From Candidatus Binatia bacterium (GTDB lineage: Bacteria; Desulfobacterota; Binatia; HRBIN30; CADEER01), in NCBI GenBank assembly GCA_050176585.1, contig JBFXHX010000011.1:26688-90687 (forward strand): DNA of 64,000 nucleotides, given 5' to 3'. The notes below the pieces were generated by a model. That model saw nothing but the letters and a program-made list of their open reading frames with translations. It was not told where the DNA came from and searched no databases. How positions within the stretch are numbered: position 1 is the stretch's first letter; each line of letters begins with the position of its first letter. A program made the position numbers and the translations under genes. Below, piece by piece: positions 2 through 47,687 of this stretch.

Positions 2-106
2 ATCAATCCGCCACTGGTGCTGACGGAACAGGAAGCGCGCGACGGCGTCGCGATCCTCGACGAAGTATTCGCCGAAATCGAACGCGACGGCCGCTACCGG
101 GCATGA
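2..106 (+). CDS. 3' end (34 codons) of a class-III (ArgD/GabT-like) aminotransferase; the gene starts upstream of the window
   Basis: Frame 2 reads ...NPPLVLTEQEARDGVAILDEVFAEIERDGRYRA*, a typical class-III aminotransferase C-terminus. The stop TGA at 104-106 overlaps the ATG of the next gene (ATGA). Confidence 0.6.
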   Translation: MNPPLVLTEQEARDGVAILDEVFAEIERDGRYRA

Positions 107-1143
107 GGCCGCGCCGCACGGCCCTCCTCGGATTCGGGCACGTCGCCGAGCACGGGCACCTGCCCGCGTGGCGCGCGCGCCGCGATTTCGCGATCACTGC
201 CGTGGTCGAGCCCGACGGGGCGCGGCGGGAGCTCGCGCGAGCGCTATTGCCCGAGGCTGCCATCTACGCCGACGCGACGAGCCTGTTCGCGGCCGAAACT
301 CTTGATGCGGTCGACATCGCCGCGCCTCCCGCCCTGCATGCGCCCCTAGCGGTCGCCGCGGCGCGCGCCGGTTGTCACATCCTGTGCGAGAAACCGCTCG
401 CGACCGCACTCCCGGATTATCTCGCCATGCGCGAGGCGGCGCGCGCCGCCGGCGTGGCGTTGTGCACGGTGCACAACTGGAAGTACTCGGCGCAATTCGG
501 GCGCCTGGCGGCGATGCTCGCGGGCGGCGAGGTCGGGCGGCCCACGCACATCCGCCTGGAGACGATCCGCACCGGCCGCGCCGTGAGCGTCGGCAGCGAG
601 TGGCGCGGCGACCGCGCGCTCGCCGGCGGCGGCATTCTGGTCGACCACGGCTGGCACACGCTGTACCTCCTGCTCGCGCTCGCCAACGAGCGCCCCGAGC
701 GCGTGTGGGCGCAGATCGAGCGCCGGCGCTACACCGAGGCAGCGGTCGAGGACACCGTCACGTGTCAGATCGAGTTTCCCTCGCTGCGCGGGGAGATCTT
801 CCTCACCTGGGCCGGCGATGCCCGCCGCACGTGCTGGGAAGTGCACGGGTCGAACGGCATCGTGCGCTTGTCCGACGATCGCGGCGCGCTGCACCAGGAC
901 GGCGCACAGCACGACCTCGTGTTCGCGAGCTCGCTCTCGGAAGGGTCGCACCATCCGGACTGGTTCGGCGCGGTGATCGACGACTTCGCCGCCGAGATCG
1001 AGGACGCCGCGCGCCGCGGCCGCAACCTGGCCGAGGCCGAATGCTGCGTGCTGCTCACGGCGCTCGCCTATGAGTCGGGCGCGCAAGGCGGGCGGCCGCT
1101 GGCCGTCCCGGCCGAGCTGCCCGGTGTCGCGACCGCCGGCTGA
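103..1143 (+). CDS. Gfo/Idh/MocA family NAD(P)-dependent oxidoreductase (inositol/sugar dehydrogenase-like)
   Basis: 346-aa ORF with an N-terminal Rossmann-like LLGFGHVAEHGHLPAW and a conserved EKP motif (ILCEKPLA). It is translationally coupled to the upstream aminotransferase. Confidence 0.8.
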   Translation: MRPRRTALLGFGHVAEHGHLPAWRARRDFAITAVVEPDGARRELARALLPEAAIYADATSLFAAETLDAVDIAAPPALHAPLAVAAARAGCHILCEKPLATALPDYLAMREAARAAGVALCTVHNWKYSAQFGRLAAMLAGGEVGRPTHIRLETIRTGRAVSVGSEWRGDRALAGGGILVDHGWHTLYLLLALANERPERVWAQIERRRYTEAAVEDTVTCQIEFPSLRGEIFLTWAGDARRTCWEVHGSNGIVRLSDDRGALHQDGAQHDLVFASSLSEGSHHPDWFGAVIDDFAAEIEDAARRGRNLAEAECCVLLTALAYESGAQGGRPLAVPAELPGVATAG

Positions 1144-1156
1144 ACGCCGCCGCGAC

Positions 1157-2326
1157 ATGGACACCACCCCGGCACCGTGCAACTGTACGGCGGTCATCCT
1201 GCCGCCGGCCGCGATGAGCTTTCATCCCGTGGCCGGGCTCCCGCTGATCCAGCGCGTGGCGCTCAGCGCGCTGCGGGCCGGGTTTGATTCGGTGGTGGCA
1301 CTGGCGCCGTTCGAGGCCGCGCGCCTGCGCGCGGTGTTCGCCCGCGACGCGCGCACCGCGGCGATCCCGGTCGTCGCCGATGCCCGGGACAGCCTGATCG
1401 CGACCGACCGCGTGGCCCTCGTTCCGTCCGACTGCGTGCTGACCACCGGCGCGCTGCAGCGCGTGCGGAGCGCGCACTTGAATGGCCGCCCCGTCGCCTT
1501 CGGCTCGGCGGGCGACGGCATCGTCGTCGGCCCGCGGGCGAGCTTGACGGCGAGCGGCGGCTGCGTCGCCTTCGAGGGCGCTGCGGAGCGCGGCGCCTTG
1601 GCCGGCGAGCTGTGCGTCCGGGTGTCGGACCCCGCCTCCGCCGCGGCGGCCGAGCGCGCACTGCTCGCCACACTCGGCTCGCCGAGCGACGGCCCGATTG
1701 CGCGCTTCGACCGCGCGCTCTCGACGCGGATCAGTCGCTATCTGGTGCGCACGCCGCTGCGGCCGAACCACATCACCACGATCGGCACGTGCACCGGTTT
1801 CGCGGGCGCTTGGGCGCTTGCGCAGGGCACCTACCTCTCCGGCGTGCTCGGCACGCTGCTGTTCTGGGTCGCCGTGATCATCGACGGCTGCGACGGCGAG
1901 GTAGCGCGCCTGAAGTTCCAGGAATCCCGGCTGGGCTATTTGTACGACATCACCACCGACAACCTGGTGCATGCCGCCATCTTCTTCGGCATCGGCGCCG
2001 GCCTGTATCGCGCCGATCCGACGCAGCCGTTCCTCGCGCTGGGGGCGCTGCTCGTAGGCGGGCTGATCTGCGCCACGGCCGCGACGATGACGTTGCTCGT
2101 GCCGGAGTCGCCGGCTGGACAGGCGCCGGCACGGACGGCGCGCGGCCGCTGGCGTCAGCGGCTGCTGCGTGGGTTCGAGGCGCTGATGAACCGGGATTTC
2201 GCCTACCCCTTGTTCGGCTTGGCGTTGCTGGGCCGCCTGGACTGGTTCCTCTGGGGCGCGGCGTTCGGCACGTACGTATACGCAGCCGCTCTCGTGCTCG
2301 TGTACCGATGGCGAGAGGCGGACTAG
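1157..2326 (+). CDS. Bifunctional nucleotidyltransferase-like / CDP-alcohol phosphatidyltransferase (IPCT/DIPPS-like) membrane enzyme
   Basis: The C-terminal half carries a complete CDP-OH-P-transferase signature, D-G-x2-A-R-x8-G-x3-D-x3-D (IDGCDGEVARLKFQESRLGYLYDITTD), plus several TM helices. The N-terminal ~200 aa is MobA/IPCT-like (AVILPPAAMSFHPVAGLPLIQ) but its G-x-G-x-R loop is degenerate. Start placed at MDTTPAP, 14 nt after the upstream stop. Confidence 0.75.
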   Translation: MDTTPAPCNCTAVILPPAAMSFHPVAGLPLIQRVALSALRAGFDSVVALAPFEAARLRAVFARDARTAAIPVVADARDSLIATDRVALVPSDCVLTTGALQRVRSAHLNGRPVAFGSAGDGIVVGPRASLTASGGCVAFEGAAERGALAGELCVRVSDPASAAAAERALLATLGSPSDGPIARFDRALSTRISRYLVRTPLRPNHITTIGTCTGFAGAWALAQGTYLSGVLGTLLFWVAVIIDGCDGEVARLKFQESRLGYLYDITTDNLVHAAIFFGIGAGLYRADPTQPFLALGALLVGGLICATAATMTLLVPESPAGQAPARTARGRWRQRLLRGFEALMNRDFAYPLFGLALLGRLDWFLWGAAFGTYVYAAALVLVYRWREAD

Positions 2327-2333
2327 CACCGCG

Positions 2334-3416
2334 GTGGAGTCCGGCGCGCCGCGCCCGCTGAACCCGTTGGCGCGACCGCTCGCCACCCTCACGCCCATGT
2401 CGGACGGCGTCTCGCTCGCTGCGCCGCGCACTGCCGCGCGGCTGATGATGTGGATCGAGCGCGGCCTGCTGCTGGGCGGCGTAGTGCTGTTCGCGTTCCT
2501 CGTCGAGCGACTCGGAGCGGCGGACGTATGGGCGAACCTGCAGCTGATCGGGTGGGGCTTCGTCCTCGTCTTCGCGCAGGAAGGGCTCGCGTTCGTCTTC
2601 AATACCATCGGCTGGTCGTTCGCCTTCCCGAAGCCCCGCAAATGTACCCGGTTTTCGCAGCTCGTCGCCGCGCGCCTCGCCGGTGAGGCGATCAACAACG
2701 TGACGCCGACGGCGACGATTGGCGGCGAAGTCGTACGGGCGCGCATGATTACCGAGACCTGCGAGTCGCATGTCGCCTGGGCGTCGGTTGCGGTGGCCAA
2801 GTTGGCCCAGACCGCCGCCCAGATGCTGTTCGTGTTTACCGGGCTCGTCCTCCTCGTGCGCGACGTGGAGCTGCCCGCCGGCTATCGGCAGGGCCTGTAT
2901 GCCGGTCTCGCCGCCATCAGCGCGGGGCTCATGCTCGGCATCGCTCTGCAGCGCCGCGGCATGTTCGGCGCCGCCGTGCGGCTGGCGACTCGTCTCGGCG
3001 TGCGCGTGCCCCAGGCGCTGCGCGAGCACGTCACCCGCCTGGATGCGGAAATCGCCCGGGTCTACGCGGAACCGAAGGAGTTCGCCGCCTCCATCGGCGC
3101 CTTTTTCGCCGGCTGGTGCATGGGCGCTGTCGAAGTGTACATCGTCATGTACTTGCTCGGCTTGTCGCCGACGTGGGGACAAGCCGTCACCGTCGAGGTG
3201 CTGTCCGTGGCTATCGATGCGCTCTTCTTCTTCGTGCCGGCCAAAGCCGGCGTTCAAGAAGGCGGGAAGGCGTTGATCTTCCAGCTCATGGGTCTCGACC
3301 CGGGCAAGGGGCTCGTGCTCGGCATCGTGCGGCGGTTGCGCGAGCTGAGCTGGTCGCTGGTCGGCCTGGTGGTGCTGGCGGTGCACCAGTCGCGCGCGCG
3401 GCGCAAACGGGCATGA
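2334..3416 (+). CDS. Flippase-like polytopic membrane protein (lysyl-PG synthase TM-region / UPF0104 family)
   Basis: 360-aa, about 8 TM protein with a GTG start 8 nt after the upstream stop. Its composition and topology are typical of flippase-like domain proteins found next to glycosyltransferases. The stop overlaps the next start (ATGA at 3413-3416). Confidence 0.65.
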   Translation: MESGAPRPLNPLARPLATLTPMSDGVSLAAPRTAARLMMWIERGLLLGGVVLFAFLVERLGAADVWANLQLIGWGFVLVFAQEGLAFVFNTIGWSFAFPKPRKCTRFSQLVAARLAGEAINNVTPTATIGGEVVRARMITETCESHVAWASVAVAKLAQTAAQMLFVFTGLVLLVRDVELPAGYRQGLYAGLAAISAGLMLGIALQRRGMFGAAVRLATRLGVRVPQALREHVTRLDAEIARVYAEPKEFAASIGAFFAGWCMGAVEVYIVMYLLGLSPTWGQAVTVEVLSVAIDALFFFVPAKAGVQEGGKALIFQLMGLDPGKGLVLGIVRRLRELSWSLVGLVVLAVHQSRARRKRA

Positions 3417-4306
3417 GCGCGCGCCGCCAGCTGATCGTCAGCGCCGACGATTTCGGCATGTCGCGGGGCGTCAATGCCGCGATCATGCGCGCCCATCGCG
3501 AGGGCGTGCTCACGCAGGTGAGCTTGATGGTTCGCGGACGGGCGGCCGCGGAAGCGGTCGAGCTCGCCCGCAGCACGCCGTCGCTGAGCGTGGGCCTGCA
3601 TCTCACGCTCGTGCAGGGATATTCCGCGGCACCGAGCGGCGCGGTGCCGCTGCTGGCCGGCGCCGATGGCCGCTTGCGCCGCGATCCCGTGTGGGCCGGC
3701 ATGCGTTATTTTTTCACTCCCGGGGCGCGCCGGCAGATCGAGCGCGAGGTCGTGGCCCAGCTCGAGGCGTTCGCGGCCACCGGCCTGCAGCTCTCGCACG
3801 TCGACGGGCACTTGACGATTCACATGCACCCGATCGTGCTCGGCGTGTTGCTCGATGTCGCGACGCGTTACCGCATCCGCGCGATCCGCCTCTCGGGCGA
3901 CCCGCTCGTCCCGGCGCTGCGCTGGGACGGGCGCCATCTGGGGCGCAAGCTGTTCGAAGCCGGCGTGTTCGGCGGGCTGTCCCGCTGGGCGCTGCCGCAC
4001 GTGCGGCGCGCCGGCCTGCGCCATCCGGACCGGGTCTACGGCATGCACCAGAGCGGCCACGTGTCGGAGGACTACTGGTCGTATCTGCTGCCGGATCTGC
4101 CACCCGGAGTGAGCGAGGTATATTGCCATCCCGCGGTGCTCGACGATGAGGCGCAGCAGTGGCGGCCGGCCGAGTATGCCGGCGACGCCGAGCTCACCGC
4201 GCTCTGCAGCCCGCGCCTGCGCGCGGCGCTCGATGCCGCCGGCATCGAGCGCATCAGCTATCGGGATTTAGTGGAGCCGCGACAGAAATCTGGCCGCAAC
4301 TCCTAA
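3413..4306 (+). CDS. YdjC/ChbG/HpnK-family carbohydrate deacetylase
   Basis: MSARRQLIVSADDFGMSRGVNAAIMRAH... carries the YdjC-family DDFG motif and the HLTL/HVDGH metal-binding histidines. Confidence 0.8.
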   Translation: MSARRQLIVSADDFGMSRGVNAAIMRAHREGVLTQVSLMVRGRAAAEAVELARSTPSLSVGLHLTLVQGYSAAPSGAVPLLAGADGRLRRDPVWAGMRYFFTPGARRQIEREVVAQLEAFAATGLQLSHVDGHLTIHMHPIVLGVLLDVATRYRIRAIRLSGDPLVPALRWDGRHLGRKLFEAGVFGGLSRWALPHVRRAGLRHPDRVYGMHQSGHVSEDYWSYLLPDLPPGVSEVYCHPAVLDDEAQQWRPAEYAGDAELTALCSPRLRAALDAAGIERISYRDLVEPRQKSGRNS

Positions 4307-5946
4307 CCGCCGAACCCGTCTAGCGCCGCGTTCGATCCCGGCCGCATGTCATAGACCTCGGCATAGTTGATGTCGCGGATCGACACGGTACCGACCAGGT
4401 GCCCGCGGCGACGGATGTCCGCCACGTCCTGCTCGGGGAGCCGTTGGCGCTGGCTGATGTACAGCACCACGTAGTCGGCCGCCTTCAGGTCCGGAATGGT
4501 GGTCCCGCACGGGAACGCGCTTCTGATCGCGTGGTACTTGAGCGCAATCTTCACGTCACAGCGCGGCGCCTCGCGCCGGCGAATCTGTTCGCCGGCGATC
4601 TCCAACCCCTCGCCCCAGCCGATGATCACGGCTCGCTCCGCTACGCGCGAACCGCCGAGCAGCGGATTGAAATACGCGAGCCCCCAAGGCGCGACCCACA
4701 CCGCGTGCGCCACCGCGAGCGCGACGGCCAGGGCGCCGGCCGCTGGCAGCCAGCGCCACCGAGCGCCGAGCCGCGCGCGAGCGCTCCGCACGGCGACGTC
4801 GGCGCCGAGCCCGACGGCGAGCGCGACGAGCGGCAGCACTACGACCGCATAGCGATCCATCTGCTTGGCGGCGCAGGATAAGACCGCCATCGGCACCGCG
4901 GCAATCGCGATCAGGCTCAGGACATGCCAGCGCTTGTCGCGCATGAGCGCGAGCGGAAGCAAAGCCAGGACGCCGAGCAGAAACCACGGCGTCATCCGCA
5001 AGGGGAGCGCCACGGCGTAAAACAGCGGGCCGGGCGTACCCGTGATGTGGCCGAGGAAAAATGTCTGATGCGGTGTAAGCGCAAGCTCTGCGGTGTCCAG
5101 CAAGAAACGGATCTGGTGCACGGGATCCGCCCAGATCGCCGGCCAGGTGAGCAGCGCGGCCACGAACCCCAAAGCCGCAGTCGCGAGCAACCGGACCGCA
5201 ACGCGCGGCTCGGCGCCGAGTGGACGGCCGTGCACCCGTCTGGCGCCGTGAAACAGCACGCCGGCCAGTAGCGCGGCAACCCCCAGCAGCAGCGGGAGCG
5301 CTGAGAGCTTGGTGAGCAACGCGCAGCCGAGCAGTGCGCCGCCGGCCGCAGCCAGCCCGCGCCGGCGATCGACGCGTGGCTCCGGGATGCCGAATGCCAG
5401 GAGCATGGCAAGCACACCGGCGGCGCCGAACAACCCGGTGAGCGCGTCGGTGTGGAATGCGGCCCCATGCGCGACCAGGAACGGCTCGGAGGCGAGCAGC
5501 GCGCCGGCCGTGATCGCCGCCACCGGGCCGGCCCATTGCCAGGCGAGAAAGGCAATCACGCCGACCAGCGCGGAGGTCGTCACCGCGACGCCGAGCTGGG
5601 CCCCGTGCAGCGCCTGCGGAGACACCGCGAACGGTTGCTGGCTGGGCGCGGCGAGCCCATACCGCACAGCGACCCAGCTCAGCGCTCGAGTGGCGTTGCC
5701 GATCCACATCGTGGTGACCCCCGGCATCGTCGCCTGCTGGCCGGTGGTCGCCGAAGCGGCGGCAAAATCCCGCCGCAAGATCGCGTCGCCGAACTGCTGC
5801 GTGCGCCGCATCCACAACGGCTCGTCCGCGGTCGAGTACCGGCCCGCGGTCTCGGCGCGCGGCACGAACGCGAGAATGGCCAAGGACGCCGCAACCAGCA
5901 CGGCAGCGCGCCTCGCGACCTGTCCGGTGGTGGTCCACGGGGTCAC
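4303..5946 (-). CDS. GT-C fold glycosyltransferase, ArnT/PMT-like (GT39/GT83), polyprenyl-phosphate-sugar dependent
   Basis: 547-aa polytopic membrane protein with the first-loop DE motif (STADEPLW) typical of ArnT/PMT transferases. Its 3' end overlaps the deacetylase 3' end convergently. Confidence 0.75.
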   Translation of the reverse strand: MTPWTTTGQVARRAAVLVAASLAILAFVPRAETAGRYSTADEPLWMRRTQQFGDAILRRDFAAASATTGQQATMPGVTTMWIGNATRALSWVAVRYGLAAPSQQPFAVSPQALHGAQLGVAVTTSALVGVIAFLAWQWAGPVAAITAGALLASEPFLVAHGAAFHTDALTGLFGAAGVLAMLLAFGIPEPRVDRRRGLAAAGGALLGCALLTKLSALPLLLGVAALLAGVLFHGARRVHGRPLGAEPRVAVRLLATAALGFVAALLTWPAIWADPVHQIRFLLDTAELALTPHQTFFLGHITGTPGPLFYAVALPLRMTPWFLLGVLALLPLALMRDKRWHVLSLIAIAAVPMAVLSCAAKQMDRYAVVVLPLVALAVGLGADVAVRSARARLGARWRWLPAAGALAVALAVAHAVWVAPWGLAYFNPLLGGSRVAERAVIIGWGEGLEIAGEQIRRREAPRCDVKIALKYHAIRSAFPCGTTIPDLKAADYVVLYISQRQRLPEQDVADIRRRGHLVGTVSIRDINYAEVYDMRPGSNAALDGFGG

Positions 5947-6074
5947 GCGCCGGCACGCTGCAAAACACAGCGCGGGAAAGCAACCTGCGCGTGCGATCGG
6001 TAGTGGGTCCGTTTGCTTCTCGGCGCAGGCTGGACGGACGTGAACCCCGCACGCGGCAGTGGCATATTGCCACC

Positions 6075-6500
6075 ATGCTGAAGACGCGGGTTCTGTTCCT
6101 CTGCACGGGCAATTCCGCCCGGAGCCAGATGGCCGAGGGCTTCCTGCGCCATCTGGCGGGCGGCCGCTTCGAGGCGGTCAGCGCTGGAATCAACCCAACC
6201 GTGGTCAACCCGCTCGCGATCAAGGCGATGCGCGAACTCGGAATCGACATCTCGGCGCAGCGGTCGAAGTCGGCGGGCAGCCTACTAGGCCAGCATTTTC
6301 CCTACGTCATCACCGTCTGCGACAAGGCCAACGAACGTTGCCCGATCTTCCCTGGCGTCGTGAAGCGGCTGCACTGGCCCCTGAGGGACCCGGCCGCCGC
6401 GACCGGAACCGAGGGTGAGCGCTCGGCGGTCTTCCGCGCCGTCCGCGACGAGATCCATCAGCGCGTGCGCGGGTTCATCGCTGCCCCTGCATGCAGCTAG
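6075..6500 (+). CDS. arsC: Arsenate reductase, thioredoxin-coupled LMW-PTP family (ArsC)
   Basis: The CX5R P-loop LFLCTGNSARSQMAEGF and the two downstream Cys (VCD...ERCP) match Bacillus-type ArsC. No arsB/acr3/arsR gene is adjacent. Confidence 0.8.
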   Translation: MLKTRVLFLCTGNSARSQMAEGFLRHLAGGRFEAVSAGINPTVVNPLAIKAMRELGIDISAQRSKSAGSLLGQHFPYVITVCDKANERCPIFPGVVKRLHWPLRDPAAATGTEGERSAVFRAVRDEIHQRVRGFIAAPACS

Positions 6501-6802
6501 CGCCGCAAACGGCTCGACGACGCCTCAAGCGTCCCCGCGATCCGGGTCCAGCTCGCCAAGCTGATCGGCCACATCGCCACCGGCAAGGTCGAGGATCAGC
6601 CGCCTCGTGGATCGAGCCCGACGGCGCGACATGGACTGCTGATCAGATCGCAGCGCTTCGTCAACCCAACATGTTCGACACAGCGACCGCACACGGACGC
6701 GAAAATATCCCGCACGATTCAAGTACGTGTCTCCGTGCGACGATTCCCGCTGCGCATTACAGACATCGGTCGATGTGCACCGAATTGAGAGATGGGCGCC
6801 TC

Positions 6803-6991
6803 TTAGCGGCGGCGGCGCCGACGCAGCTCGTCGAGCTGCATCTCGAGCGCCTTCTGCTGAATCGCGCGATCGCGCTCGGCGCGCTGCTCCGGCGTCATGC
6901 GATGGTTCAGATCTTCCCAGCGACGATACTTCGCCGCAGTGCGTGTCGCCGGCGCTGTCTGTCGGCGCACGGGCGGTGCCTTCGCCTTCAT
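6803..6991 (-). CDS. Small basic hypothetical protein (62 aa, Lys/Arg-rich N-terminus, C-terminal poly-Arg)
   Basis: MKAKAPPVRRQTAPATRTAAKYRRWEDLNHRMTPEQRAERDRAIQQKALEMQLDELRRRRRR. A consensus Shine-Dalgarno GGAGGAG lies 7 nt upstream of the ATG. No family recognised. Confidence 0.5.
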   Translation of the reverse strand: MKAKAPPVRRQTAPATRTAAKYRRWEDLNHRMTPEQRAERDRAIQQKALEMQLDELRRRRRR

Positions 6992-7367
6992 CGATGGGTC
7001 TCCTCCAGATATGCGAGCCACAGGCGCTCGGCGAATCGTACATATTGCCGAGCCACACCGCCGCATTCGACGCCTGCTCGACCACCAAGCTGCGCGCCAT
7101 CAATGGCGGCAGCTTTATCACCAGCTTCTGGCGGCGCCGGACGAACTTACCTGCCCCCCTTCTCCGCCGCAGGCATAATCTCCTCCGTGTTAGGCCGGCT
7201 GGCGATGACTCAAACCAAAATGACCGCTACCCTGCGGTCGAGCGCTTTTCGAGAGCGCGGCCCTTGCGCTACGTTGCCGGCGCGACGGAGTGCAGCATCC
7301 ATGCGCAGCGGAAAGACCAGCACCGGGGCCCCACGCGTACCAGACCTCGCGAGCCGGTGAGCATCGT

Positions 7368-8348
7368 TTGAATACCCGGGCTGACTCGACGCAGGTGCAC
7401 CTCTCGGCCGTCGTACCGCTCTTCGACGAAGAGCCCACGCTCGCCGACCTCTACGAGCGCCTAACCCGAGTCTTGCGCGCGCTCGGGGCGCCGTACGAGA
7501 TTTTGTTCGTCGATGACGGCAGCACCGACGGCGGCCCGGCGCTGCTCGACCGCCTGGCGAGCCAGGACCCCTGCGTGGGCGTGCTGCACCTGCGGCGCAA
7601 CTACGGCAAGTCGGCCGCTCTCGACGCCGGCTTTCGCGCCGCGCGCGGGCGGGTCGTCGCCACGCTCGATGCCGATCTTCAAGACCCGCCCGAGGAACTG
7701 CCCAAGCTGCTCGCGAAGCTCGAGGAGGGCTTCGACGCGGTGAGCGGCTGGAAACAGGGACGGCGCGACCCACTGCGCCGGCGCTTGGCGTCGCGCGTGT
7801 TCAACGCCGTGGTGCGCCGCCTCGCGCGCTTGCCACTGCACGACCTGAACTCCGGGTTCAAGGTGTACCGCGCGGAGGCATTGCACGAGCTTCACCTATA
7901 CGGCGATCTGCATCGCTACGTGCTCGTGTTGCTGGCCGGCAGCGGCTATCGCATCGGAGAAGTGGCCGTGCGCCATGCCCCCCGCCAGCACGGGCGTTCC
8001 AAATACGGTGTGGAGCGCCTGACCAACGGGTTCTTCGACCTGCTGACGGTGACGATGAACATCCGCTACCGCGCGCGCCCACTGCACCTGTTTGGTCTAG
8101 CGGGTCTCGGATTGGCGGGCGTTGGATTGGCCGTGCTGCTCTATTTGACCGTGCTGTGGTTCGTCGGCGAGGGCCCGATCGGCCACCGGCCGCTGCTGTT
8201 CCTCGGGCTGCTCCTCATGATGCTCGGCGTGCAGCTCATCAGCACGGGTTTGCTCGGCGAGCTGATCAACCGGCAGATACACCGCCAGGAGCCCTCGTAC
8301 GCGGTGCGCAACTTTGCCGCGCCGGGCAGCGCGCGCGGTGCGGACTGA
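7368..8348 (+). CDS. GT2 polyprenyl-phosphate glycosyltransferase (ArnC/DPM-synthase/GtrB-like) with C-terminal TM anchor
   Basis: LSAVVPLFDEE...ILFVDDGSTDG...DADLQDP is the GT2 DXD architecture. Two C-terminal TM helices resemble ArnC/GtrB. The start is uncertain: TTG 7368 or GTG 7395. Confidence 0.85.
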   Translation: MNTRADSTQVHLSAVVPLFDEEPTLADLYERLTRVLRALGAPYEILFVDDGSTDGGPALLDRLASQDPCVGVLHLRRNYGKSAALDAGFRAARGRVVATLDADLQDPPEELPKLLAKLEEGFDAVSGWKQGRRDPLRRRLASRVFNAVVRRLARLPLHDLNSGFKVYRAEALHELHLYGDLHRYVLVLLAGSGYRIGEVAVRHAPRQHGRSKYGVERLTNGFFDLLTVTMNIRYRARPLHLFGLAGLGLAGVGLAVLLYLTVLWFVGEGPIGHRPLLFLGLLLMMLGVQLISTGLLGELINRQIHRQEPSYAVRNFAAPGSARGAD

Positions 8349-8426
8349 GCACTTCGAGCCGGCGCGAGCGGCCGGGCGCGGCGCGCGGCGCAGCGGGGAC
8401 GGCCGGCTCGCCCCTGCGCGCGGCAC

Positions 8427-9029
8427 TCACCGCGCCGACGTTTCGCCGCACGCGCACGCCGCGTCCTCTGCCACCTGATCGCCCCACTGCACCCACCCGG
8501 GCCGGCGATAGCGCGCGAAAAGCTCCAGATACGGGGCCGGGCTGCACGATTCCACCACCGAGTAGAGCCGCTCCGGCTTGCGGGAGTGAGCGCGCTTGCG
8601 CTCGCACACGATATTCACCTGACGCCGGCCCGGCCACTGCGTGCGCAAGGAACCGCGCACGCCGAACAGTACCAACTCAGTGACGTTGCGAAAGTAGAAC
8701 CCCACGCCGCGCCCATCCGGCCCACCGTCGACGCGGATCTTGTACCAGACCAGATTCGCCTTGTACCGGAAGCCCCAGGCGGCCAGCACGTCCAACCCCC
8801 ACGGGATCAGCGCATTCGGCACCCAGAGGTACAGATGCGCGCGCGCAGCGGCCAACCCGCCGACTGGTAGCGCCGCGATATCGGTGACGGACATCGTCGG
8901 GTAGCGATGCAGGCGGCGGTGCTCCGGGGCGATCTTCCCGGTGCGGTTCTGGAACCGCCACGGCGGATCGGCGAGGATCGTTCCAAACGGTCCGTGCAGG
9001 GCGGCCAGTGAATCGGTGAGCGCGCTCAT
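8427..9029 (-). CDS. MT-A70 family N6-adenine DNA methyltransferase
   Basis: MSALTDSLAALHGPFGTILADPPWRFQN carries the DPPW catalytic motif. The SD GGGAGGTGGTG lies directly upstream of the ATG at 9029. The longer ORF from a TTG at 9137 was rejected. Confidence 0.8.
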   Translation of the reverse strand: MSALTDSLAALHGPFGTILADPPWRFQNRTGKIAPEHRRLHRYPTMSVTDIAALPVGGLAAARAHLYLWVPNALIPWGLDVLAAWGFRYKANLVWYKIRVDGGPDGRGVGFYFRNVTELVLFGVRGSLRTQWPGRRQVNIVCERKRAHSRKPERLYSVVESCSPAPYLELFARYRRPGWVQWGDQVAEDAACACGETSAR

Positions 9030-9133
9030 CACCACCTCCCGCCTGCTCGTCGCCAGGCGGCGAGCGAGGTGTCGATGCCATGCGCAGCACCAATTGCCAA
9101 GCGGGCCGGCGCTGGGCGGGTCACGCGCGCCGA

Positions 9134-9412
9134 TCAACCCTCGAGCTCGAATGGGAGCTGGTGCCGCTTCGCCGCATTACACGCGCGACAGGCGGGCACC
9201 ACGTTGCCCTTGGTCGAGCGGCCGCCGCGGATGATGGGCACGAGGTGGTCCATGGTCAGCGACTTGGCCCCGACCTGGGCGCCGCAATAGTGACAGATGC
9301 CCGGCGCGCACCGGCGCTTCCACCATGGGGAAGCGCGCAATGCGCGCGCTTTGACGCGCTCGCGTTTGATCGCCGCGTCGTCGACTTCGACGAGAAACCC
9401 ACCGCCGCTCAC
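9134..9412 (-). CDS. HNH endonuclease (small, phage-type)
   Basis: CHYCGAQVGAKSLTMDHLVPIIRGGRSTKGNVVPACRACNAAKRH is an HNH motif with a zinc-binding Cys pair. GTG start. It sits immediately upstream of the MTase. Confidence 0.75.
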   Translation of the reverse strand: MSGGGFLVEVDDAAIKRERVKARALRASPWWKRRCAPGICHYCGAQVGAKSLTMDHLVPIIRGGRSTKGNVVPACRACNAAKRHQLPFELEG

Positions 9413-9877
9413 CGGCTGAGGCTACGGGAGCGCGACCGCGCGGCGCAAGTGGGCTTCGTTGAGCTCACGGAGCGTCACCCATGTGCGCCGTGGGGACTGG
9501 CGCGCTCGGGAAAAGACGACGGGAGCCCCGACCCATTCTGAACATCACGACCAACGGCTGCGGTGAACGCCGCAGTGAGAAGGGAGGCTCTGGTCCGGCA
9601 ACGCGTCGGCGTCCACGCACGATTTCGGCGCTCACGCGAAGGAATGGTCGTCACCTGGGGAGTGACACGTGCTCGAGTGGTGACACTGGAGGGCGCCGCT
9701 CCCCAGCGTCGCGGCCATTGCCCTTCGCGACGAGCCTATCCGTTGGCGCTTTCCGCGGCCCGGCGCCGCGATCCGACAACAAGCGGGAGGGATGCACGCT
9801 CGTCTTTGAGGCCATTGCATGGCGCGCCATGGCAAGCGCGGAGAAGGGGTGCTCGCAATCTGCCGACCGCCTCACGC

Positions 9878-10348
9878 CTACCGGCCGGGCGGCGCCGTCG
9901 CGGCGGTGATCGCGATCTCGGCCAGCACGAAGTCCAAGCCCTTGTAGCGGCCGAGCATGCGCACGTGCGCGCCGGAGGGCGCCGTGCGGAAGCGGTCCAA
10001 TTCGTCCTTGCTGCCGCGCAGCAACAGTTGTTCGGGATATTGCTCGCTGCGGTTGAACAGGCTCATGCCCTCGGCCTGCGCCGTCTGCGCGCGCACGACG
10101 CCGAAGCGGCGAACCACGTCTCCAGCGCGAATCTGAATCGTGCCAAGCGTGTCCGCGCCTTCCGCGGGATCGACGAAGCCTTCCAGGCGCAGATCCTGCC
10201 CGAGCCCGAACGGCATCGGCCCAGCGGCAGCCGGCGCGGCAGCCAAGACGAGCACGAGCGCGGCGCTGGCCACTGACTCAGCGCCGAGCCGTCGGCAACG
10301 AAACGCAGCCCCCAACCGCGGACGGCGTTCAGGGCGGATTGCATTCAA
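9878..10348 (-). CDS. Hypothetical secreted protein (signal-peptide-like N-terminus)
   Basis: 156-aa ORF overlapping the protease stop by 20 nt. It has an Arg-rich n-region followed by [14 protein letters not shown]. No family recognised, and high-GC frame bias could also explain it. Confidence 0.35.
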   Translation of the reverse strand: MNAIRPERRPRLGAAFRCRRLGAESVASAALVLVLAAAPAAAGPMPFGLGQDLRLEGFVDPAEGADTLGTIQIRAGDVVRRFGVVRAQTAQAEGMSLFNRSEQYPEQLLLRGSKDELDRFRTAPSGAHVRMLGRYKGLDFVLAEIAITAATAPPGR

Positions 10349-12095
10349 AGCGCAACCGGTCGTAATCCGCGCGCGTCGCGCCCGACACGCGCATCCGAAT
10401 TTCCCCCCGGCCCGGGCCGCCGCCCGGCGGCCGCTCGACTACGAACGGGACCGGGCTGGAACAGGCATTCGCGCCCGTGAAGGGGAAGGCCGGCACTGCG
10501 AAAGCCAACGCCTCCGCGTTCGTGCGCTCGACGGTCCCCGGCGGCGCATCGAGGCGCGGGGCGATCATCGCAAGCTGCTCCAGCGGCTCCGGCACAGCGC
10601 AGTCGGCCAGCAGCGGATCGCGCATGTTCAAGCAGACGGACACGCCGAACGTACAGATGCCGGGCGTGGAGTCGCCGTCGCACAGCGGATCGTTGTCGGT
10701 GCAGGTCGCGGACGAATACGCGCGCGCGTCCACCGCCTCCGGCGGGAGAACACTGAATTCGAGCAGGCAGTCGCTGCGGCGTCCGCCGCCGCCGCGCACG
10801 AGCTCGGGCGCGCGCATCGCTGCCCCAAGCGCGGCAAACGCATCCACGCGGGGCGTGGTACGGCCGCTGCGCGGATCGAGCACGGGCGTGCCACTCTCGC
10901 CGAGCAGGGCGACGACCTGCTCCGCTCGCAAACCGGGCCGCGCGGACAGCAGCAGCGCCGCGGCCCCAGCTGCATGCGGCGCGGCCATGGACGTGCCGGA
11001 CTGCATGAAGAGCCCACCGCCCAAGCCGTCCGAGATGATGTCGACTCCGGGCGCCAGCAGATCCATGCCGCCTTTGTTCGTGAAGCTCGCGATCATATCG
11101 ACGTCGTTTACCGCGCCGACCGCAACCGCCCGCGAAACGCACGCCGGCGCGTTGACGGCGTTGGCGCGGCCGTTGTTGCCGGTGGCCGCGAACAACATCG
11201 CCCCGCGCTGCCAGAGCTGCTCGATCGCATCGGCGAACAGCTGATTGGTCGCGCACCCTTCCTGATCGCCGCAGTTGCGCTCACACCCCGGGGAGTACTG
11301 ACCCTGGCTGACCAGGCTCATGTTCACCACCCGGACATCCGAACGCTCGGCGGCGATCCAGTCGAGCGCGGCGATCCAGTCGGAGAGAAACCCCCGGTTG
11401 CGATCATCGAGCACCCGCACCGCGAGCAGTTCGGCGCCGGGTGCCATTCCCACCGGCGCCACGCGACCGCGCGACAGCGCGATGCCGGCGACATGTGGAC
11501 CGTGCGGGTCGGTGGTGGCGGCGCTGCCGGGGCCGGACGCGCGCGCTTCGCCGTTCGGGCAGCAGGGATTGCGCGAGAGGCCGCCGGAGATGCCACCGCG
11601 GCAGAAGCACTCCTCGTGCACGAGCGCATCGGCGATGTCGGGATGCGCCGCGTCGATGCCGTTGTCGACGATCGCGATCACGCTGCCCCTGCCGTCCACG
11701 CTGCGCGCGTGCACGCGCTCGGCGCGCACCTGCGGCACGCTGCCGCCGAGGGCGGCCGTGCCGAGCCCGTCCAGGTCGATGCGCTCCACGTCCGGGTTGC
11801 GCCGCAATTCGTCGAGCGCCGCGCGGGTGACCCGCGCCGCGAATCCGGGCACCGTCTGATACGCGTGCGTGACCTCTACGCCGTCGGCAATGGCGGCGAG
11901 CACGGCGGCGCGCCGGCGGCTCATCAGCGCTCCGCGTTCCGGAGCGGCACCGGGCGCCGGCGCGCGCAGGCGCACCACGACGGAGGCCTCGCCCAGGCGA
12001 TCCGCATCCTCTTGGGCCGCGCCGCTGACCACCGCGCCGCCTGCCGGACACACGAGCAACAACCCGAGCACGGCCAGCGCGATGCAGCAGAGCAT
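10329..12095 (-). CDS. Subtilisin-like serine protease (S8) with N-terminal signal/propeptide and Cys-rich C-terminal domain
   Basis: Signal peptide MLCCIALAVLGLLLVCPAGG; I9-like propeptide; catalytic triad VIAIVDNGID (Asp), HGPHVAGI (His), GTSMAAPHAAGAAALL (Ser). The C-terminal ~150 aa hold about 10 Cys. Confidence 0.9.
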   Translation of the reverse strand: MLCCIALAVLGLLLVCPAGGAVVSGAAQEDADRLGEASVVVRLRAPAPGAAPERGALMSRRRAAVLAAIADGVEVTHAYQTVPGFAARVTRAALDELRRNPDVERIDLDGLGTAALGGSVPQVRAERVHARSVDGRGSVIAIVDNGIDAAHPDIADALVHEECFCRGGISGGLSRNPCCPNGEARASGPGSAATTDPHGPHVAGIALSRGRVAPVGMAPGAELLAVRVLDDRNRGFLSDWIAALDWIAAERSDVRVVNMSLVSQGQYSPGCERNCGDQEGCATNQLFADAIEQLWQRGAMLFAATGNNGRANAVNAPACVSRAVAVGAVNDVDMIASFTNKGGMDLLAPGVDIISDGLGGGLFMQSGTSMAAPHAAGAAALLLSARPGLRAEQVVALLGESGTPVLDPRSGRTTPRVDAFAALGAAMRAPELVRGGGGRRSDCLLEFSVLPPEAVDARAYSSATCTDNDPLCDGDSTPGICTFGVSVCLNMRDPLLADCAVPEPLEQLAMIAPRLDAPPGTVERTNAEALAFAVPAFPFTGANACSSPVPFVVERPPGGGPGRGEIRMRVSGATRADYDRLRFECNPP

Positions 12096-12193
12096 TCATC
12101 CATTACACGGGGGCGCCCGCGCCATTGCAACTCCGATCTGCGCGGTGCGGCGCGCTTTGCACCGCACGGCGGCGCGCGTTAATGCCCGCGGCG

Positions 12194-13285
12194 ATGGCCA
12201 CCGAGCGGTCCGCGATCGCCGTCCTGGGCGCGACGGGCTTCACGGGCCGGCTCGTGGCCCACGCCCTGCGCGAGCGCCGCGCGCCGCTGCTGCTCGCCGG
12301 CCGGAGCCGATCCCGGCTCGAAGCGCTGGCGCGCGCGCTCGGCGGGGCGGATTTCGCGGTGGCGCGCGTGGAAGACTCCGCCTCGCTCGACGCGCTGGCG
12401 CGGCGCGCGCGGGTGCTGATCAACTGCGCGGGGCCGTTCGTGGATCTCGGCGAGCCCGTCGTGCGCGCCGCCATCGGCGCCGGTGCGCATTACGCGGATA
12501 CCACGGGCGAACAGCCGTTCGTGCACGACGTATTCGCGCACGATAGCTGGGCGCGAGAACGGCGGGTAGCCGTGATCCCCGCCCTGGCATTCGAGATCGC
12601 GCTGGCGGACTGCGCCGCCGCTCTGGCCGCGCGTGGCCTCGACGAGGTCGAAACGGTGGAGGTCGCTTACGCCGTGCGGTTCCACGCGAGCCAGGGCACC
12701 AAACGGTCCGCCCTGCGCATGCTCGAGCGGCGCGGGCTCGGCTACGGCGACGGCCGATGGGTCGAGGAAGCACCGGGGCATCACTCGGCCGTGGTCGAGC
12801 TGCCGCTCGGTCGCCGGGCGGCGGTGAGTTTTCCGGGCGCGGAGGTGGTCACGATCCCGCGCCACATCGCCGCCCGCACCGTGCGTGCGCTCATGTGCGT
12901 TCCGCGGGGGGTCGCGACCGTCGCACACGTGCTCGGGCCGGCGCTGCCGGCGCTCGCCAGCTCTCCGCTGGGCGCGCTCGCGCGACGCTGGCTCGGCAGC
13001 GGCACGGCCGGCCCGGACCTCGCGACGCGCCGCCGGGACACCTTCGTGATCGCCGTCGACGTGCGCGGCCGGCGCGCCGGATCCGCCGCGGCTCGTCGGG
13101 TCATGGTCACCGGCTGTGATCCATACGCCCTGACCGCCGCGATCGCGGCGCAGGGAGCCATATGGCTCGCCGGCGGCGAGCACCGCTGCAGCGGCGTGCT
13201 GTCTCCGGCGATGGCATTCGATCCCGCGCGCCTGTTGGATGCCACGACGTCAAACAGCGTGGTGTATACGGAATCGGACATGTGA
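12194..13285 (+). CDS. Saccharopine dehydrogenase-like NAD(P)-binding oxidoreductase
   Basis: IAVLGATGFTGRLVAHAL Rossmann motif and the overall length fit the family. Confidence 0.7.
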   Translation: MATERSAIAVLGATGFTGRLVAHALRERRAPLLLAGRSRSRLEALARALGGADFAVARVEDSASLDALARRARVLINCAGPFVDLGEPVVRAAIGAGAHYADTTGEQPFVHDVFAHDSWARERRVAVIPALAFEIALADCAAALAARGLDEVETVEVAYAVRFHASQGTKRSALRMLERRGLGYGDGRWVEEAPGHHSAVVELPLGRRAAVSFPGAEVVTIPRHIAARTVRALMCVPRGVATVAHVLGPALPALASSPLGALARRWLGSGTAGPDLATRRRDTFVIAVDVRGRRAGSAAARRVMVTGCDPYALTAAIAAQGAIWLAGGEHRCSGVLSPAMAFDPARLLDATTSNSVVYTESDM

Positions 13286-45536: not shown

Positions 45537-45841
45537 CCGCCGACCAGCACCGCGCGCGGTACTCCGGCTCTCCGGGTGCGGATGCGCCGGCAAGCTCCTC
45601 TTCCGCCGCGGCCCAGGTCGATGATCTCGAACTCATCCCCCGCGCGGTGCGCGACAAGCTCGACCGCACCGGCATTAAGCTCCGCCTGCGCGAGTGGTCG
45701 CTGCTAGCCCGCGAAGAGCGGCAGCGGCTGGTCGATGCGCCGTGCCAGTCGGCAGCCGAGGTCGCCAGCTATGCGACCCTCCTCGACCGCATGGTCCGCG
45801 CGCGCAGCGGCAGGCTGCCCGACCGCTTGCCTCCGCGGTGA
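45533..45841 (+). CDS. Small protein resembling the nitrate-reductase-associated protein family (assignment tentative)
   Basis: LELIPRAVRDKLDRTGIKLRLREWSLLAREERQRL resembles, from memory, the conserved core of that small-protein family. Not verified. Confidence 0.4.
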   Translation: MTADQHRARYSGSPGADAPASSSSAAAQVDDLELIPRAVRDKLDRTGIKLRLREWSLLAREERQRLVDAPCQSAAEVASYATLLDRMVRARSGRLPDRLPPR

Positions 45842-45884
45842 AATCCCGCGGCCTTCCGGCCTCTGCAGTGGCTCGGCAACCAGC

Positions 45885-47687
45885 GTGAAATCACTCGTCC
45901 GCATCGCCAACGCCGGCGGGTACTGGGGCGACGATCCGGAGGCGCTCCGCCGGCAGGTGACCGGCGGACCGCTCGATTATGTGACCATGGATTTCCTGGC
46001 GGAAATCACCATGGTGATCCTGCAACGCCAGCGCGCTCGGGATCCCAAAGCGGGCTTCGCGCGCGATTTCATCGAGCACCTGCAGCTCGCGCTGCCGCCG
46101 ATCGCAGAGAGCGGTGTGACCGTGATCGTCAATGCCGGCGGCATCAATCCGACCGGCTGTGCCGAAGCGGTCGAGGCGCTCTGTGCGCGCGCAGGCGTCG
46201 ACCTGCCGCTCGGCATCGTGGACGGCGATGACCTGCTGCCGGAGCTCGCAGCGCTCGAGGCTGCCGGCGTGCAGCTGGACCATATGGACGGGAGCCGCCG
46301 TTTCGCGGAGATCCGCGGGCGGGTCGTCGCGGCCAACGCGTATCTGAGCGCCGCACCCGTCGTCGCGGCCCTGCGCGGCGGCGCCCGCATCGTCATCACC
46401 GGGCGCACCACAGACGCCGCGCTCATCCTCGCGCCACTCGTGCATGAGTTCGGCTGGGCGTGGGACGACTGGGATCGGCTCGCGGCGGGCATCGCCGCCG
46501 GCCACATCCTCGAGTGCGGGGCGCAGGCCACCGGAGGCAACTTCACGGATTGGCAGCGCATCCCGTCCATGCTCGACGTCGGCTACCCCATCGCCGAAGC
46601 ACGCGCCGACGGGACGTTCGTCGTCACCAAGCATCCACACACCGGCGGCGTCGTGAGCTTGCGCACCGTCACCGAGCAGTTGCTCTACGAGATCGGCGAC
46701 CCGCGCGCATACGCAACCCCTGACGTGGTCGCAGACTTCACGAGCCTGCAGCTCTCGCTCGACGGGCCCGACCGCGTGCGCGTCTCCGGCGCGCGCGGCC
46801 GGCCCGCCCCGCAGAACCTGAAGGTATCGGTCGTGTACCAGGCCGGCTATCGCGCCGTCGGCACCGCGCTGATCTCGGGTCCGAACGCCGTCGCCAAAGG
46901 CGAGCGACTCGCGGAGATGCTCTGGCACCGCCTCGGGACCGACTTCACCGATCGCCGTGTCGACTTCATCGGCCACAACGCGTGCTGGGGCGGTGCCGTG
47001 GCCCCCGCGCACGAGCCAAACGAGATCATCTTCCGCGCCGGTGTGGCCGACGCCGATCGCGCCAAGATAAAGCGGTTCGCCGACCACTTGCTCGGCTTCG
47101 CGCTGCAAGGGCCGCCCGGTCTCGGCCTCTTCGGCGGCCGCCCGGACGTTCAGGAAGCTTTCGGCTTCTGGCCGGCGCTGGTGCCGCGCGACCGCGTGAC
47201 CGCGCGCGTCGCCCTTCGCCATGGCGGCGAGCAGGCGGTCCAGGAGGTGCCCCTGACGCTACCCGCGGCGCCGCCGACCCGCGCGCCGGACGCGGCGCGT
47301 GAAGTCGCCATCGAGGTGGCGGACGGCGAGCGCGCGGCGCGCACCAGCCGCGTACGCCTGCAGACGATCGCGTACGCGCGCTCCGGCGACAAGGGTGACC
47401 ACGCCAACATCGGCGTCGCCGCGCGCTCTCCGCAGGCGTACGGTTTCCTCCGCGAAGCGCTCACGGCGAAGCGCGTGCGCGCCTTCTACCGCGATCTCGT
47501 CCGCGGCCCGATCGAGCGCTACGAACTCCCCAACCTGTTGGCGTTCAACTTCCTCATGCAGCACGCGCTCGGCGGCGGCGGTACGCTCTCGTTGCGCGTC
47601 GACCACCAGGGCAAGACGCTCGCGCAAGGCCTGCTGGCGCTGGAGCTGGACGTGCCCGAGGACGTGCTCGCCTCAGTGGGCGCGTGA
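45885..47687 (+). CDS. AtuA-like acyclic-terpene-utilisation family protein (DUF1446 + DUF4387)
   Basis: GTG start. VRIANAGGYWGDD N-terminus; the C-terminal YARSGDKGDHANIGV block. About 600 aa, as for AtuA homologues. Confidence 0.7.
   Translation: MKSLVRIANAGGYWGDDPEALRRQVTGGPLDYVTMDFLAEITMVILQRQRARDPKAGFARDFIEHLQLALPPIAESGVTVIVNAGGINPTGCAEAVEALCARAGVDLPLGIVDGDDLLPELAALEAAGVQLDHMDGSRRFAEIRGRVVAANAYLSAAPVVAALRGGARIVITGRTTDAALILAPLVHEFGWAWDDWDRLAAGIAAGHILECGAQATGGNFTDWQRIPSMLDVGYPIAEARADGTFVVTKHPHTGGVVSLRTVTEQLLYEIGDPRAYATPDVVADFTSLQLSLDGPDRVRVSGARGRPAPQNLKVSVVYQAGYRAVGTALISGPNAVAKGERLAEMLWHRLGTDFTDRRVDFIGHNACWGGAVAPAHEPNEIIFRAGVADADRAKIKRFADHLLGFALQGPPGLGLFGGRPDVQEAFGFWPALVPRDRVTARVALRHGGEQAVQEVPLTLPAAPPTRAPDAAREVAIEVADGERAARTSRVRLQTIAYARSGDKGDHANIGVAARSPQAYGFLREALTAKRVRAFYRDLVRGPIERYELPNLLAFNFLMQHALGGGGTLSLRVDHQGKTLAQGLLALELDVPEDVLASVGA

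Follow-up and report, generated by a model that had tools for sequence, protein, structure and literature searches.

The gene at positions 1157..2326 of a 64,000-nucleotide stretch of contig JBFXHX010000011.1 from a Candidatus Binatia bacterium (the whole stretch is referred to here as the window) encodes a protein that is, judged by its sequence, a class I cytidine diphosphate (CDP)-alcohol phosphotransferase with an intact catalytic signature; its predicted activity is a transfer reaction that releases cytidine monophosphate (CMP). The catalytic membrane domain is preceded by a domain of the nucleotidyltransferase fold that has lost its catalytic loop. We consider it reasonably probable that the protein catalyzes the membrane step of a Kennedy-type pathway, in which the CDP-alcohol would be made in trans by another enzyme and the N-terminal domain would be docked in a non-catalytic role. 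The features of the target gene are as follows.

1157..2326, plus strand: the target gene, coding for an AF2299-type CDP-alcohol phosphotransferase of 389 amino acids.
1157..1684, plus strand: N-terminal cytosolic nucleotidyltransferase-fold domain (residues 1 to ~176), catalytic signature lost.
1199..1222, plus strand: LPPAAMSF, a degenerate loop where nucleotidyltransferases have (L)AAGxGxR(L/M), with the lysine of the KPL motif also gone (from the sequence and an alignment with KdsB).
1690..2326, plus strand: juxtamembrane helix (DGPIARFDRALSTRIS) and six-helix transmembrane (TM) catalytic domain (from an AlphaFold 2 model and its Foldseek match to AF2299).
1883..1960, plus strand: complete CDP-alcohol phosphotransferase signature D243xxD246G247xxA250R251-x8-G260xxxD264xxxD268, including the loop ARLKFQES between the second and third transmembrane helices (TM2-TM3).

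A protein called by NCBI in two Candidatus Binatia metagenome-assembled genomes (MAGs) is 100% identical to the target (P0001) and is annotated as a 'CDP-alcohol phosphatidyltransferase family protein'. The start at position 1157 is backed by the N-termini of homologs; a longer open reading frame (ORF) that begins at the ATG at 1070 runs into the end of the upstream gene (stop codon 1141-1143) and does not gain a glycine loop.

Written out in full, the catalytic signature reads D243 G244 C D246 G247 E V A250 R251, followed after 8 residues by G260, after a further 3 by D264 and after another 3 by D268. The first-pass annotation of this DNA had described the motif as intact, and all of its residues are indeed present and invariant in 24 homologs (50-77% identity). 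The Pfam family CDP-OH_P_transf (PF01066) matches the target with 38.7 bits against a gathering threshold of 22 (E = 1.7e-9), and a chance match is therefore excluded. The full-length AlphaFold model (predicted local distance difference test score, pLDDT, 89.4) places helices at residues 180-196, 203-222, 226-252, 258-286, 292-313, 328-357 and 361-384, and Foldseek aligns it to the PDB entries 4o6n, 4mnd, 5d92 and 6h53. When PDB entries are ranked by sequence, AF2299 of Archaeoglobus fulgidus (PDB 4o6m/4o6n/4q7c) comes first (E = 1e-14 for the target sequence alone, 2.3e-22 for the family profile), and it likewise heads the Foldseek matches (4o6n_A; E = 3.2e-12, 390 aligned columns over the full length, with a template modelling score, TM-score, of 0.76 normalised to the target). 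The IPCT-DIPPS enzyme (4mnd) comes second both by sequence and by fold, and the phosphatidylinositol-phosphate (PIP) synthases rank lower. Three arginines in the C-terminal part of the target (R333, R338, R346) are conserved.

The N-terminal domain has, according to its structural models, a true nucleotidyltransferase fold. A phmmer search with residues 1-178 against 1.84 billion representatives returned 26 relatives at E <= 1e-3 and linked no canonical nucleotidyltransferase to them; because this single-sequence search gave no bridge, we took the connection from fold searches and profile comparisons. An AlphaFold 2 model of the domain by itself reached a pLDDT of 94 and a predicted TM-score (pTM) of 0.89, and Foldseek returned 72 PDB matches to it at E <= 1e-3, the best 50 of which belong without exception to nucleotidyltransferases (KdsB, MurU, CobY, Rv0371c, IspD, RmlA, GlmU and PntC among them); the TM-scores normalised to the query domain were 0.60-0.65 for MurU, CobY and Rv0371c. 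A multi-phylum profile of the domain matched KdsB with E = 0.0043 and MurU and GlmU with values of 0.06-0.16. In hhalign, the domain was aligned to the operon's own nucleotidyltransferase with a probability of 78.7% (E = 2e-6). The Pfam family PF12804 (NTP_transf_3) stayed below its gathering threshold (17.9 bits vs. a cut-off of 27, E = 0.0036), and its match begins at profile position 19, past the glycine loop.

In active nucleotidyltransferases, the glycines, the arginine and the lysine of this loop bind the phosphates of the nucleoside triphosphate (NTP). The N-terminal stretch of the target, AVILPPAAMSFHPVAGLPLIQR, contains no GxGx[RK] motif; it runs C-T-A-V-I, then L-P-P-A-A-M-S-F, then H-P-V-A-G-L-P-L-I-Q-R. 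At the position of the loop, none of the 118 full-length family members carries GxGx[RK]; a loose version of the pattern has two matches among these members, both 30-45 residues in and hence beyond the loop. Aligned with one another, 58 species loci (from Binatia, Myxococcota, Elusimicrobia, Planctomycetota, Gemmatimonadota, Methylomirabilota, Acidobacteriota and further groups) have in common a hydrophobic strand, then a loop of 5-7 residues that lacks Gly, Arg and Lys, and then (V/I)AG(L/V)P...R. When the target is aligned with KdsB, its residues M20-S21-F22 stand opposite K-P-L, and the loop that precedes them is several residues shorter and has neither Gly nor Arg; relative to active nucleotidyltransferases, the loop is short by 6-9 residues. 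The first-pass annotation had reported the loop as degenerate and had taken this as a sign of a pseudo-enzymatic N-terminal domain; structure prediction and alignment bear out both points, in that the fold is not an unrelated one and the catalytic residues are not kept. Sequence comparison thus makes a non-catalytic N-terminal domain the most likely case. The domain is not simply decaying: S21, G27, P29, R33, A38 and P90 are invariant within the clade and F22 and D92 nearly so, and this conservation indicates that it is kept by selection.

Among the fetched loci, a single relative, from Methylomirabilota, has a canonical N-terminal domain (L051 9245-10771): there, a nucleotidyltransferase domain with the motif AGRGSR (PF12804, E = 1.6e-14) is fused to the CDP-alcohol phosphotransferase. 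This fusion gene lies near a gene for an HpnN-like transporter of the resistance-nodulation-division (RND) type (36% identity).

A possible role for a nucleotidyltransferase fold without catalysis is provided by the structure of AF2299, in which the TM2-TM3 loop inserts a Leu and a Phe into the cytidylyltransferase-like domain and that domain is thereby packed onto the membrane domain (PMC4634129). This loop reads ARLKFMES in AF2299 and ARLKFQES in the target. In all forms that possess the N-terminal domain (58/58), Leu is found at the position following the arginine (R+1) and F, L, Y or M at R+3, whereas five of the six forms that lack it have Ala at R+1 and a polar or basic residue at R+3. 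The co-variation of these loop residues with the presence of the domain supports a docking role, and it points to an N-terminal domain that would sit, without a catalytic function, on the membrane domain, if the loop positions of the target and AF2299 are equivalent as their alignment suggests. The six homologs without the domain, all from Elusimicrobia, retain the same partner genes, and the N-terminal domain is on these grounds dispensable for the chemistry.

These short Elusimicrobia forms (L034, L037, L039, L042, L057 and L063; 213-289 amino acids) begin at the juxtamembrane helix TDGF(F/M)ARHFDRK, and in five of the six the TM2-TM3 loop has A-K/R-x-M where the long forms carry L-K-F. Another departure from the usual architecture is a Planctomycetia ORF of 790 amino acids (L030 1854-4226) with two CDP-OH_P_transf stretches, which, from its sequence, could have arisen by tandem duplication or by fusion.

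The target is the sixth gene of an eight-gene operon. The window opens in the middle of this operon, and the first four genes lie upstream of it on the source contig; positions in the corresponding locus (L001), where the eight genes span 5384-13150, convert into window positions by subtraction of 8844.

Gene 1, upstream of the window: HAD hydrolase (phosphatase), 234 amino acids.
Gene 2, upstream of the window: stand-alone NTP_transferase, 237 amino acids.
Gene 3, upstream of the window: ITPK-like ATP-grasp protein, 267 amino acids.
Gene 4, upstream of the window: class III aminotransferase, 451 amino acids.
Gene 5, 103..1143, plus strand: Gfo/Idh/MocA oxidoreductase dependent on nicotinamide adenine dinucleotide (Pfam GFO_IDH_MocA and C-terminal domains).
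Gene 6, between the oxidoreductase and HpnL-like genes: the target CDP-alcohol phosphotransferase.
Gene 7, 2334..3416, plus strand: HpnL-like polytopic membrane protein (LPG_synthase_TM, 'flippase-like'; Pfam 96.8 bits).
Gene 8, the last, 3413..4306, plus strand: HpnK-type YdjC carbohydrate deacetylase (TIGR03473; Pfam YdjC E = 7e-70).

The nucleotidyltransferase signature that the target has lost is present in the second gene of the operon. Three genes upstream of the target, the stand-alone nucleotidyltransferase carries the intact sequence MKAGLIAAGHGERLRG..APKPLV (IAAGHGERL...KPL), is matched by PF00483 and PF12804 at ~1e-10, and aligns over its whole length with the N-terminal half of the IPCT/DIPPS model (E = 2.6e-11). 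The pseudo-enzymatic character of the N-terminal domain is supported by this intact enzyme as well as by the lost signature. The degenerate loop of the target is thereby largely explained, through the combination of the known AF2299-type architecture with a nucleotidyltransferase that acts in trans and is encoded outside the window.

The remaining soluble enzymes would be suited to the handling of a polyol or cyclitol. With the family profile of the ATP-grasp protein, the ATP-grasp structure 7drm was matched with E = 2.6e-5, ITPK-family inositol-phosphate kinases with 3e-4 to 8e-4, and RimK with 1e-3; its motif LIDLNDWPSY resembles VVDVNVFPSY of ITPK. Those nearest to the aminotransferase are GABA-aminotransferase-like enzymes from archaea, and the oxidoreductase has its nearest PDB entries among oxidoreductases of sugar and cyclitol rings (an aldose-aldose oxidoreductase, anhydrofructose reductase, GFOR and scyllo-inositol dehydrogenase). 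That the oxidoreductase is a true inositol dehydrogenase (IolG) can be ruled out, since the IolG model scores 72 bits against a cut-off of 355. The first-pass annotation had proposed a cyclitol substrate from the proximity of an inositol-dehydrogenase-family enzyme; such a substrate stays plausible while unproven, the neighbouring enzyme being a generic member of the Gfo/Idh/MocA family, and it gains some weak extra support from the ITPK-like ATP-grasp gene and from the HpnJ genes of related loci.

The order of all eight genes is kept in ~20 species of Binatia and related groups. In 27 of 83 species loci, among them loci from Myxococcota, Elusimicrobia, Planctomycetota and Ectothiorhodospiraceae, four or all five of the soluble genes adjoin the target homolog, and the stand-alone nucleotidyltransferase is present in every one of these 27. 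Divergent from the start of the operon, and upstream of the window, the source contig also carries genes for a glycerol kinase, a GlcD-like flavin adenine dinucleotide (FAD) oxidase and a glycerol-3-phosphate dehydrogenase (L001 437-5079, minus strand). The same arrangement is seen in L005, L007, L009, L014, L017, L021 and L025; these genes may supply a glycerol-derived precursor, or their position may be a coincidence.

The two genes that follow the target tie the operon to the hpn genes. The YdjC gene of the window scores well above the cut-off of the HpnK model TIGR03473 (307.7 vs. 232.6 bits), and the HpnL-like gene is a marginal case, just below the cut-off of the HpnL model TIGR03476 (187 vs. 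195.65 bits). Over the 83 species loci, we counted HpnL-like genes in 47, HpnK-like genes in 30, HpnJ in 23, HpnI in 16 and HpnN in 6. Gene fusions strengthen this connection. HpnJ, the degenerate nucleotidyltransferase domain and the CDP-alcohol phosphotransferase form single ORFs of ~900-915 amino acids in four genomes (L043 2157-4901, L052 7991-10738, L064 6371-9079, and L066) from Methylomirabilota, Gemmatimonadota and Rokubacteria; in the two that were scored (L043 and L052), the HpnJ part reached 764-775 bits against a cut-off of 577.6. HpnJ is the cyclitol-forming, B12-binding radical S-adenosylmethionine enzyme. The fusion gene in L052 has as its neighbours HpnI (416 vs. 310 bits), an HpnL-like gene and an HpnN-like one, which at 531.5 bits falls short of its cut-off of 751.85. 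In Terriglobia/Acidobacteriota, an HpnL-like LPG_synthase_TM domain stands N-terminal to the degenerate nucleotidyltransferase domain and the CDP-alcohol phosphotransferase (L084 8336-10804 and L085 1-2052), and these two fusions are, at the level of gene structure, a Rosetta-stone link between the HpnL-like proteins and the family of the target. In L023, the gene order is [CDP-alcohol phosphotransferase]-HpnL-HpnI-HpnJ-HpnK, with HpnI, HpnJ and HpnK scored and all above their cut-offs, and in L014 the full operon is present with HpnJ 5 kb downstream.

In the pathway that we favor, a polyol or cyclitol would be oxidised, transaminated, phosphorylated and then activated with cytidine triphosphate (CTP) by the soluble enzymes of the operon. 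The stand-alone nucleotidyltransferase would perform the cytidylyltransferase step in trans and so provide a CDP-activated aminated polyol or cyclitol, from which the target would transfer the phospho-alcohol to the hydroxyl group of an acceptor with release of CMP. The HAD phosphatase would open or close the pathway by taking off a phosphate, and the HpnL-like protein would serve as the membrane partner of the target. In many lineages, the family adjoins HpnL, HpnK, HpnJ and HpnI or is fused to them; on this basis, the probable acceptor is a membrane lipid or lipid head group of the hopanoid-polyol or glucosamine-cyclitol type.

A number of observations weigh against this pathway. The relatives of the target are all derived from MAGs. 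Asp92 (PSDC), which stands where MobA-like enzymes have their metal or substrate Asp, is retained in the N-terminal domain of the target, and given this residue the domain may, as far as its sequence tells, bind a ligand of some sort. By its profile matches (3e-4 for ITPK vs. 1e-3 for RimK), the ATP-grasp protein might act as a ligase and not as a kinase. The proposed pathway, and all of its rivals too, leave the role of the HpnK-type deacetylase unexplained. There is no HpnI, HpnJ or HpnN gene in the 64-kb window, and a motif search found no DxDDTA-containing ORF, as would mark a squalene-hopene cyclase, in any fetched locus; the connection to hopanoids is therefore one drawn from family models and from the gene order of relatives. 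AF2299 and DIPPS, finally, are said not to process lipids (PMC4634129), a point that favors a soluble phosphodiester as the product.

A soluble product is the core of the first competing explanation, in which the target would be a solute synthase similar to that for di-myo-inositol-phosphate (DIP), joining the CDP-X produced by the stand-alone nucleotidyltransferase to a phosphorylated polyol or cyclitol to give X-P-Y-P, from which the HAD enzyme would remove the terminal phosphate. The aminated phosphodiester would then be a compatible solute or a precursor, exported by the HpnL-like protein. The closest structures, those of AF2299 and DIPPS, belong to enzymes that use soluble substrates; nucleotidyltransferase, CDP-alcohol phosphotransferase and phosphatase make up exactly the set of the DIP pathway, with the HAD enzyme encoded by the first gene of the operon, and the conserved residues R333, R338 and R346 could bind the phosphate of the acceptor. 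We nevertheless judge this explanation to be rather unlikely, for it accounts neither for the fusions to the HpnL-like protein and to HpnJ nor for the position of the family inside hpnI-J-K-L-N clusters that include an RND lipid transporter.

The second alternative keeps a lipid as the product and exchanges donor and acceptor: as in PIP synthases, CDP-diacylglycerol would be the donor and an aminated cyclitol or polyol phosphate, produced by the operon, the acceptor, and the HAD enzyme would dephosphorylate the resulting lipid in the way that PIP phosphatase follows PIP synthase. The NCBIfam models for PIP synthase and archaetidylinositol-phosphate synthase match the target as well as that for DIPPS does (~1e-14), a HAD gene is present, and membrane partners accompany the family. 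On this view, however, the stand-alone nucleotidyltransferase would be idle, despite its presence in 27 out of 27 loci with the soluble gene set, and both by sequence and by fold the PIP synthases fall behind AF2299 and DIPPS; their model (NF045883) scores 52.7 bits on the target against a cut-off of 170, and that for archaetidylinositol-phosphate synthase (NF040950) 53.7 against 180. We regard a PIP-synthase-type reaction as quite improbable.

More doubtful still is the view that the N-terminal domain, its non-canonical loop notwithstanding, functions as a nucleotidyltransferase whose specificity for nucleotide or substrate is unusual, so that the protein would be bifunctional in the manner of IPCT/DIPPS. 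The fold is intact in a model of high confidence, Asp92 is kept, and S21, G27, P29 and R33 are invariant. Yet the shortened loop is devoid of the glycines, Arg and Lys, the homologs that lack the domain keep their partners, and the canonical domain of L051 shows what an active fusion looks like. An unusual nucleotide specificity had been offered by the first-pass annotation as the alternative to a pseudo-enzyme; since an intact nucleotidyltransferase is encoded three genes upstream, a pseudo-enzyme with the activity supplied in trans is much the likelier of the two, and we hold a still active N-terminal domain to be very unlikely. A decaying gene or an annotation artefact, for which the degenerate loop and nothing further speaks, is hardly credible in view of the intact reading frame, the pLDDT of 89, the 450 homologs with conserved N-domain residues and the cross-phylum synteny.

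The eight-gene operon is followed in the window by a block of genes (4303-9137) that sits between the HpnK-like gene and an HNH gene.

4303-5946, minus strand: polytopic GT-C-like membrane protein of 547 amino acids, with no Pfam, NCBIfam or PDB match.
5991-6500: ORF of a low-molecular-weight phosphatase/ArsC-like gene, called as 141 amino acids.
7290-8348: ArnC-like GT2 glycosyltransferase (PRK10714, E = 3.6e-53).
8427-9137, minus strand: MT-A70 methyltransferase.

In other loci, the HNH gene comes directly after the HpnK-like gene (L006) or after the CDP-alcohol phosphotransferase gene (L005), and the block therefore looks like a lineage-specific insertion. The GT-C-like membrane protein and the ArnC-like GT2 were considered as members of the system and ruled out: they are conserved beside no homolog of the target. 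Further along, positions 17000-38000 are occupied by housekeeping genes that are unrelated to the target (alaS, recA, prfB-like, ybeY, phoH, cinA, pgpA, a major facilitator superfamily transporter and a type II secretion ATPase), and a look-up of window positions 45735-47687 for related genes found nothing on record.

What is new here is a conserved, multi-phylum operon for a HAD enzyme, a nucleotidyltransferase, an ATP-grasp protein, an aminotransferase, an oxidoreductase and a CDP-alcohol phosphotransferase, together with its links to HpnJ, HpnK and HpnL. The operon and the repeated fusions to HpnJ and HpnL suggest an undescribed, phosphodiester-linked head group that contains nitrogen and is possibly carried on hopanoid-type lipids. 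HpnL is a conserved member of hopanoid clusters to which recent surveys assign no function, and a CDP-alcohol phosphotransferase does not come up in those surveys (PMC12324291; PMC12583986); the HpnL fusions offer a testable hypothesis for what HpnL does. As a tentative extension, to which we attach rather low confidence, the degenerate nucleotidyltransferase-CDP-alcohol phosphotransferase protein and HpnL might form a two-component module, not recognised before, by which hopanoid-polyol lipid head groups, or analogous ones, receive a CDP-activated amino-cyclitol or amino-polyol phosphate. If true, the products of such a module would be a new class of lipids, phospho-amino composites, and HpnL would gain a first concrete biochemical context; lipids of this kind, if real, would be relevant to the reading of bacteriohopanepolyol biomarkers and to the physiological role of AF2299-like enzymes.

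Among known CDP-alcohol phosphotransferases, AF2299 resembles the target most. It too consists of an N-terminal 'cytidylyltransferase-like' domain and six transmembrane helices (372 amino acids in the crystallised chain vs. 389 in the target). The core IIDGCDGE(V/I)ARLKF(Q/M)ES is the same in both save for two positions, and the juxtamembrane motif DG(P/W)IAR..(D/N)R..S.RIS is common to them, whereas the overall identity is ~20% and the N-terminal domains share a single non-significant match of 20 residues (GLPLIQRVALSALRAGFD vs. GLTLRERIEKTLQRAGFD). AF2299 is an archaeal protein that was crystallised with CDP-glycerol, the target is bacterial, and the aminotransferase, oxidoreductase, ATP-grasp and HpnK/L genes of the target operon are not known for AF2299. 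A query with the membrane domain of AF2299 found as its closest relatives P0146 and P0147 (74% and 64% identity), proteins of 210-244 amino acids without an N-terminal domain; AF2299 itself was not among the matches.

The bifunctional IPCT/DIPPS enzyme of DIP synthesis (AF0263, PDB 4mnd; NF041135) also combines an N-terminal nucleotidyltransferase-fold domain with a six-helix CDP-alcohol phosphotransferase, and the logic of its pathway (nucleotidyltransferase, CDP-alcohol phosphotransferase and phosphatase) is that of the target operon. Its N-terminal domain is catalytically active, in contrast to that of the target, which is without the loop and has the active nucleotidyltransferase encoded by a separate gene. 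The description of the target as an IPCT/DIPPS-like fusion, given to it at the outset, is roughly right at best: AF2299 is nearer by sequence and fold, and with the curated model NF041135, whose cut-off is 580 bits, the target reaches 54 and aligns over residues 154-280 only (the linker and the transmembrane part). Bacterial PIP synthases (PgsA1 / RsPIPS) have the fold and the signature of the target but no N-terminal domain.

At the level of gene clusters, two systems invite comparison. The putative 'alternative' inositol-lipid cluster of Bacteroides vulgatus/Prevotella, for which a Kennedy-like route via a CDP-alcohol was proposed and is likewise unconfirmed (Heaver et al., 2022; PMC9246714), contains an NTP transferase, a CDP-alcohol phosphotransferase and a HAD enzyme with an LPG-synthase-like gene nearby, as does the target operon. 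It differs in lying beside a myo-inositol-phosphate synthase gene and in lacking aminotransferase, oxidoreductase, ATP-grasp and YdjC genes, and a degenerate nucleotidyltransferase domain has not been reported for it (PMC9246714). The hopanoid cluster hpnI-hpnJ-hpnK-hpnL(-hpnN), responsible for bacteriohopanetetrol glucosamine and the cyclitol ether, shares its HpnK/HpnL-like neighbours with the target locus; the hopanoid side-chain pathway as described includes no CDP-alcohol phosphotransferase, unlike the loci of the target family.

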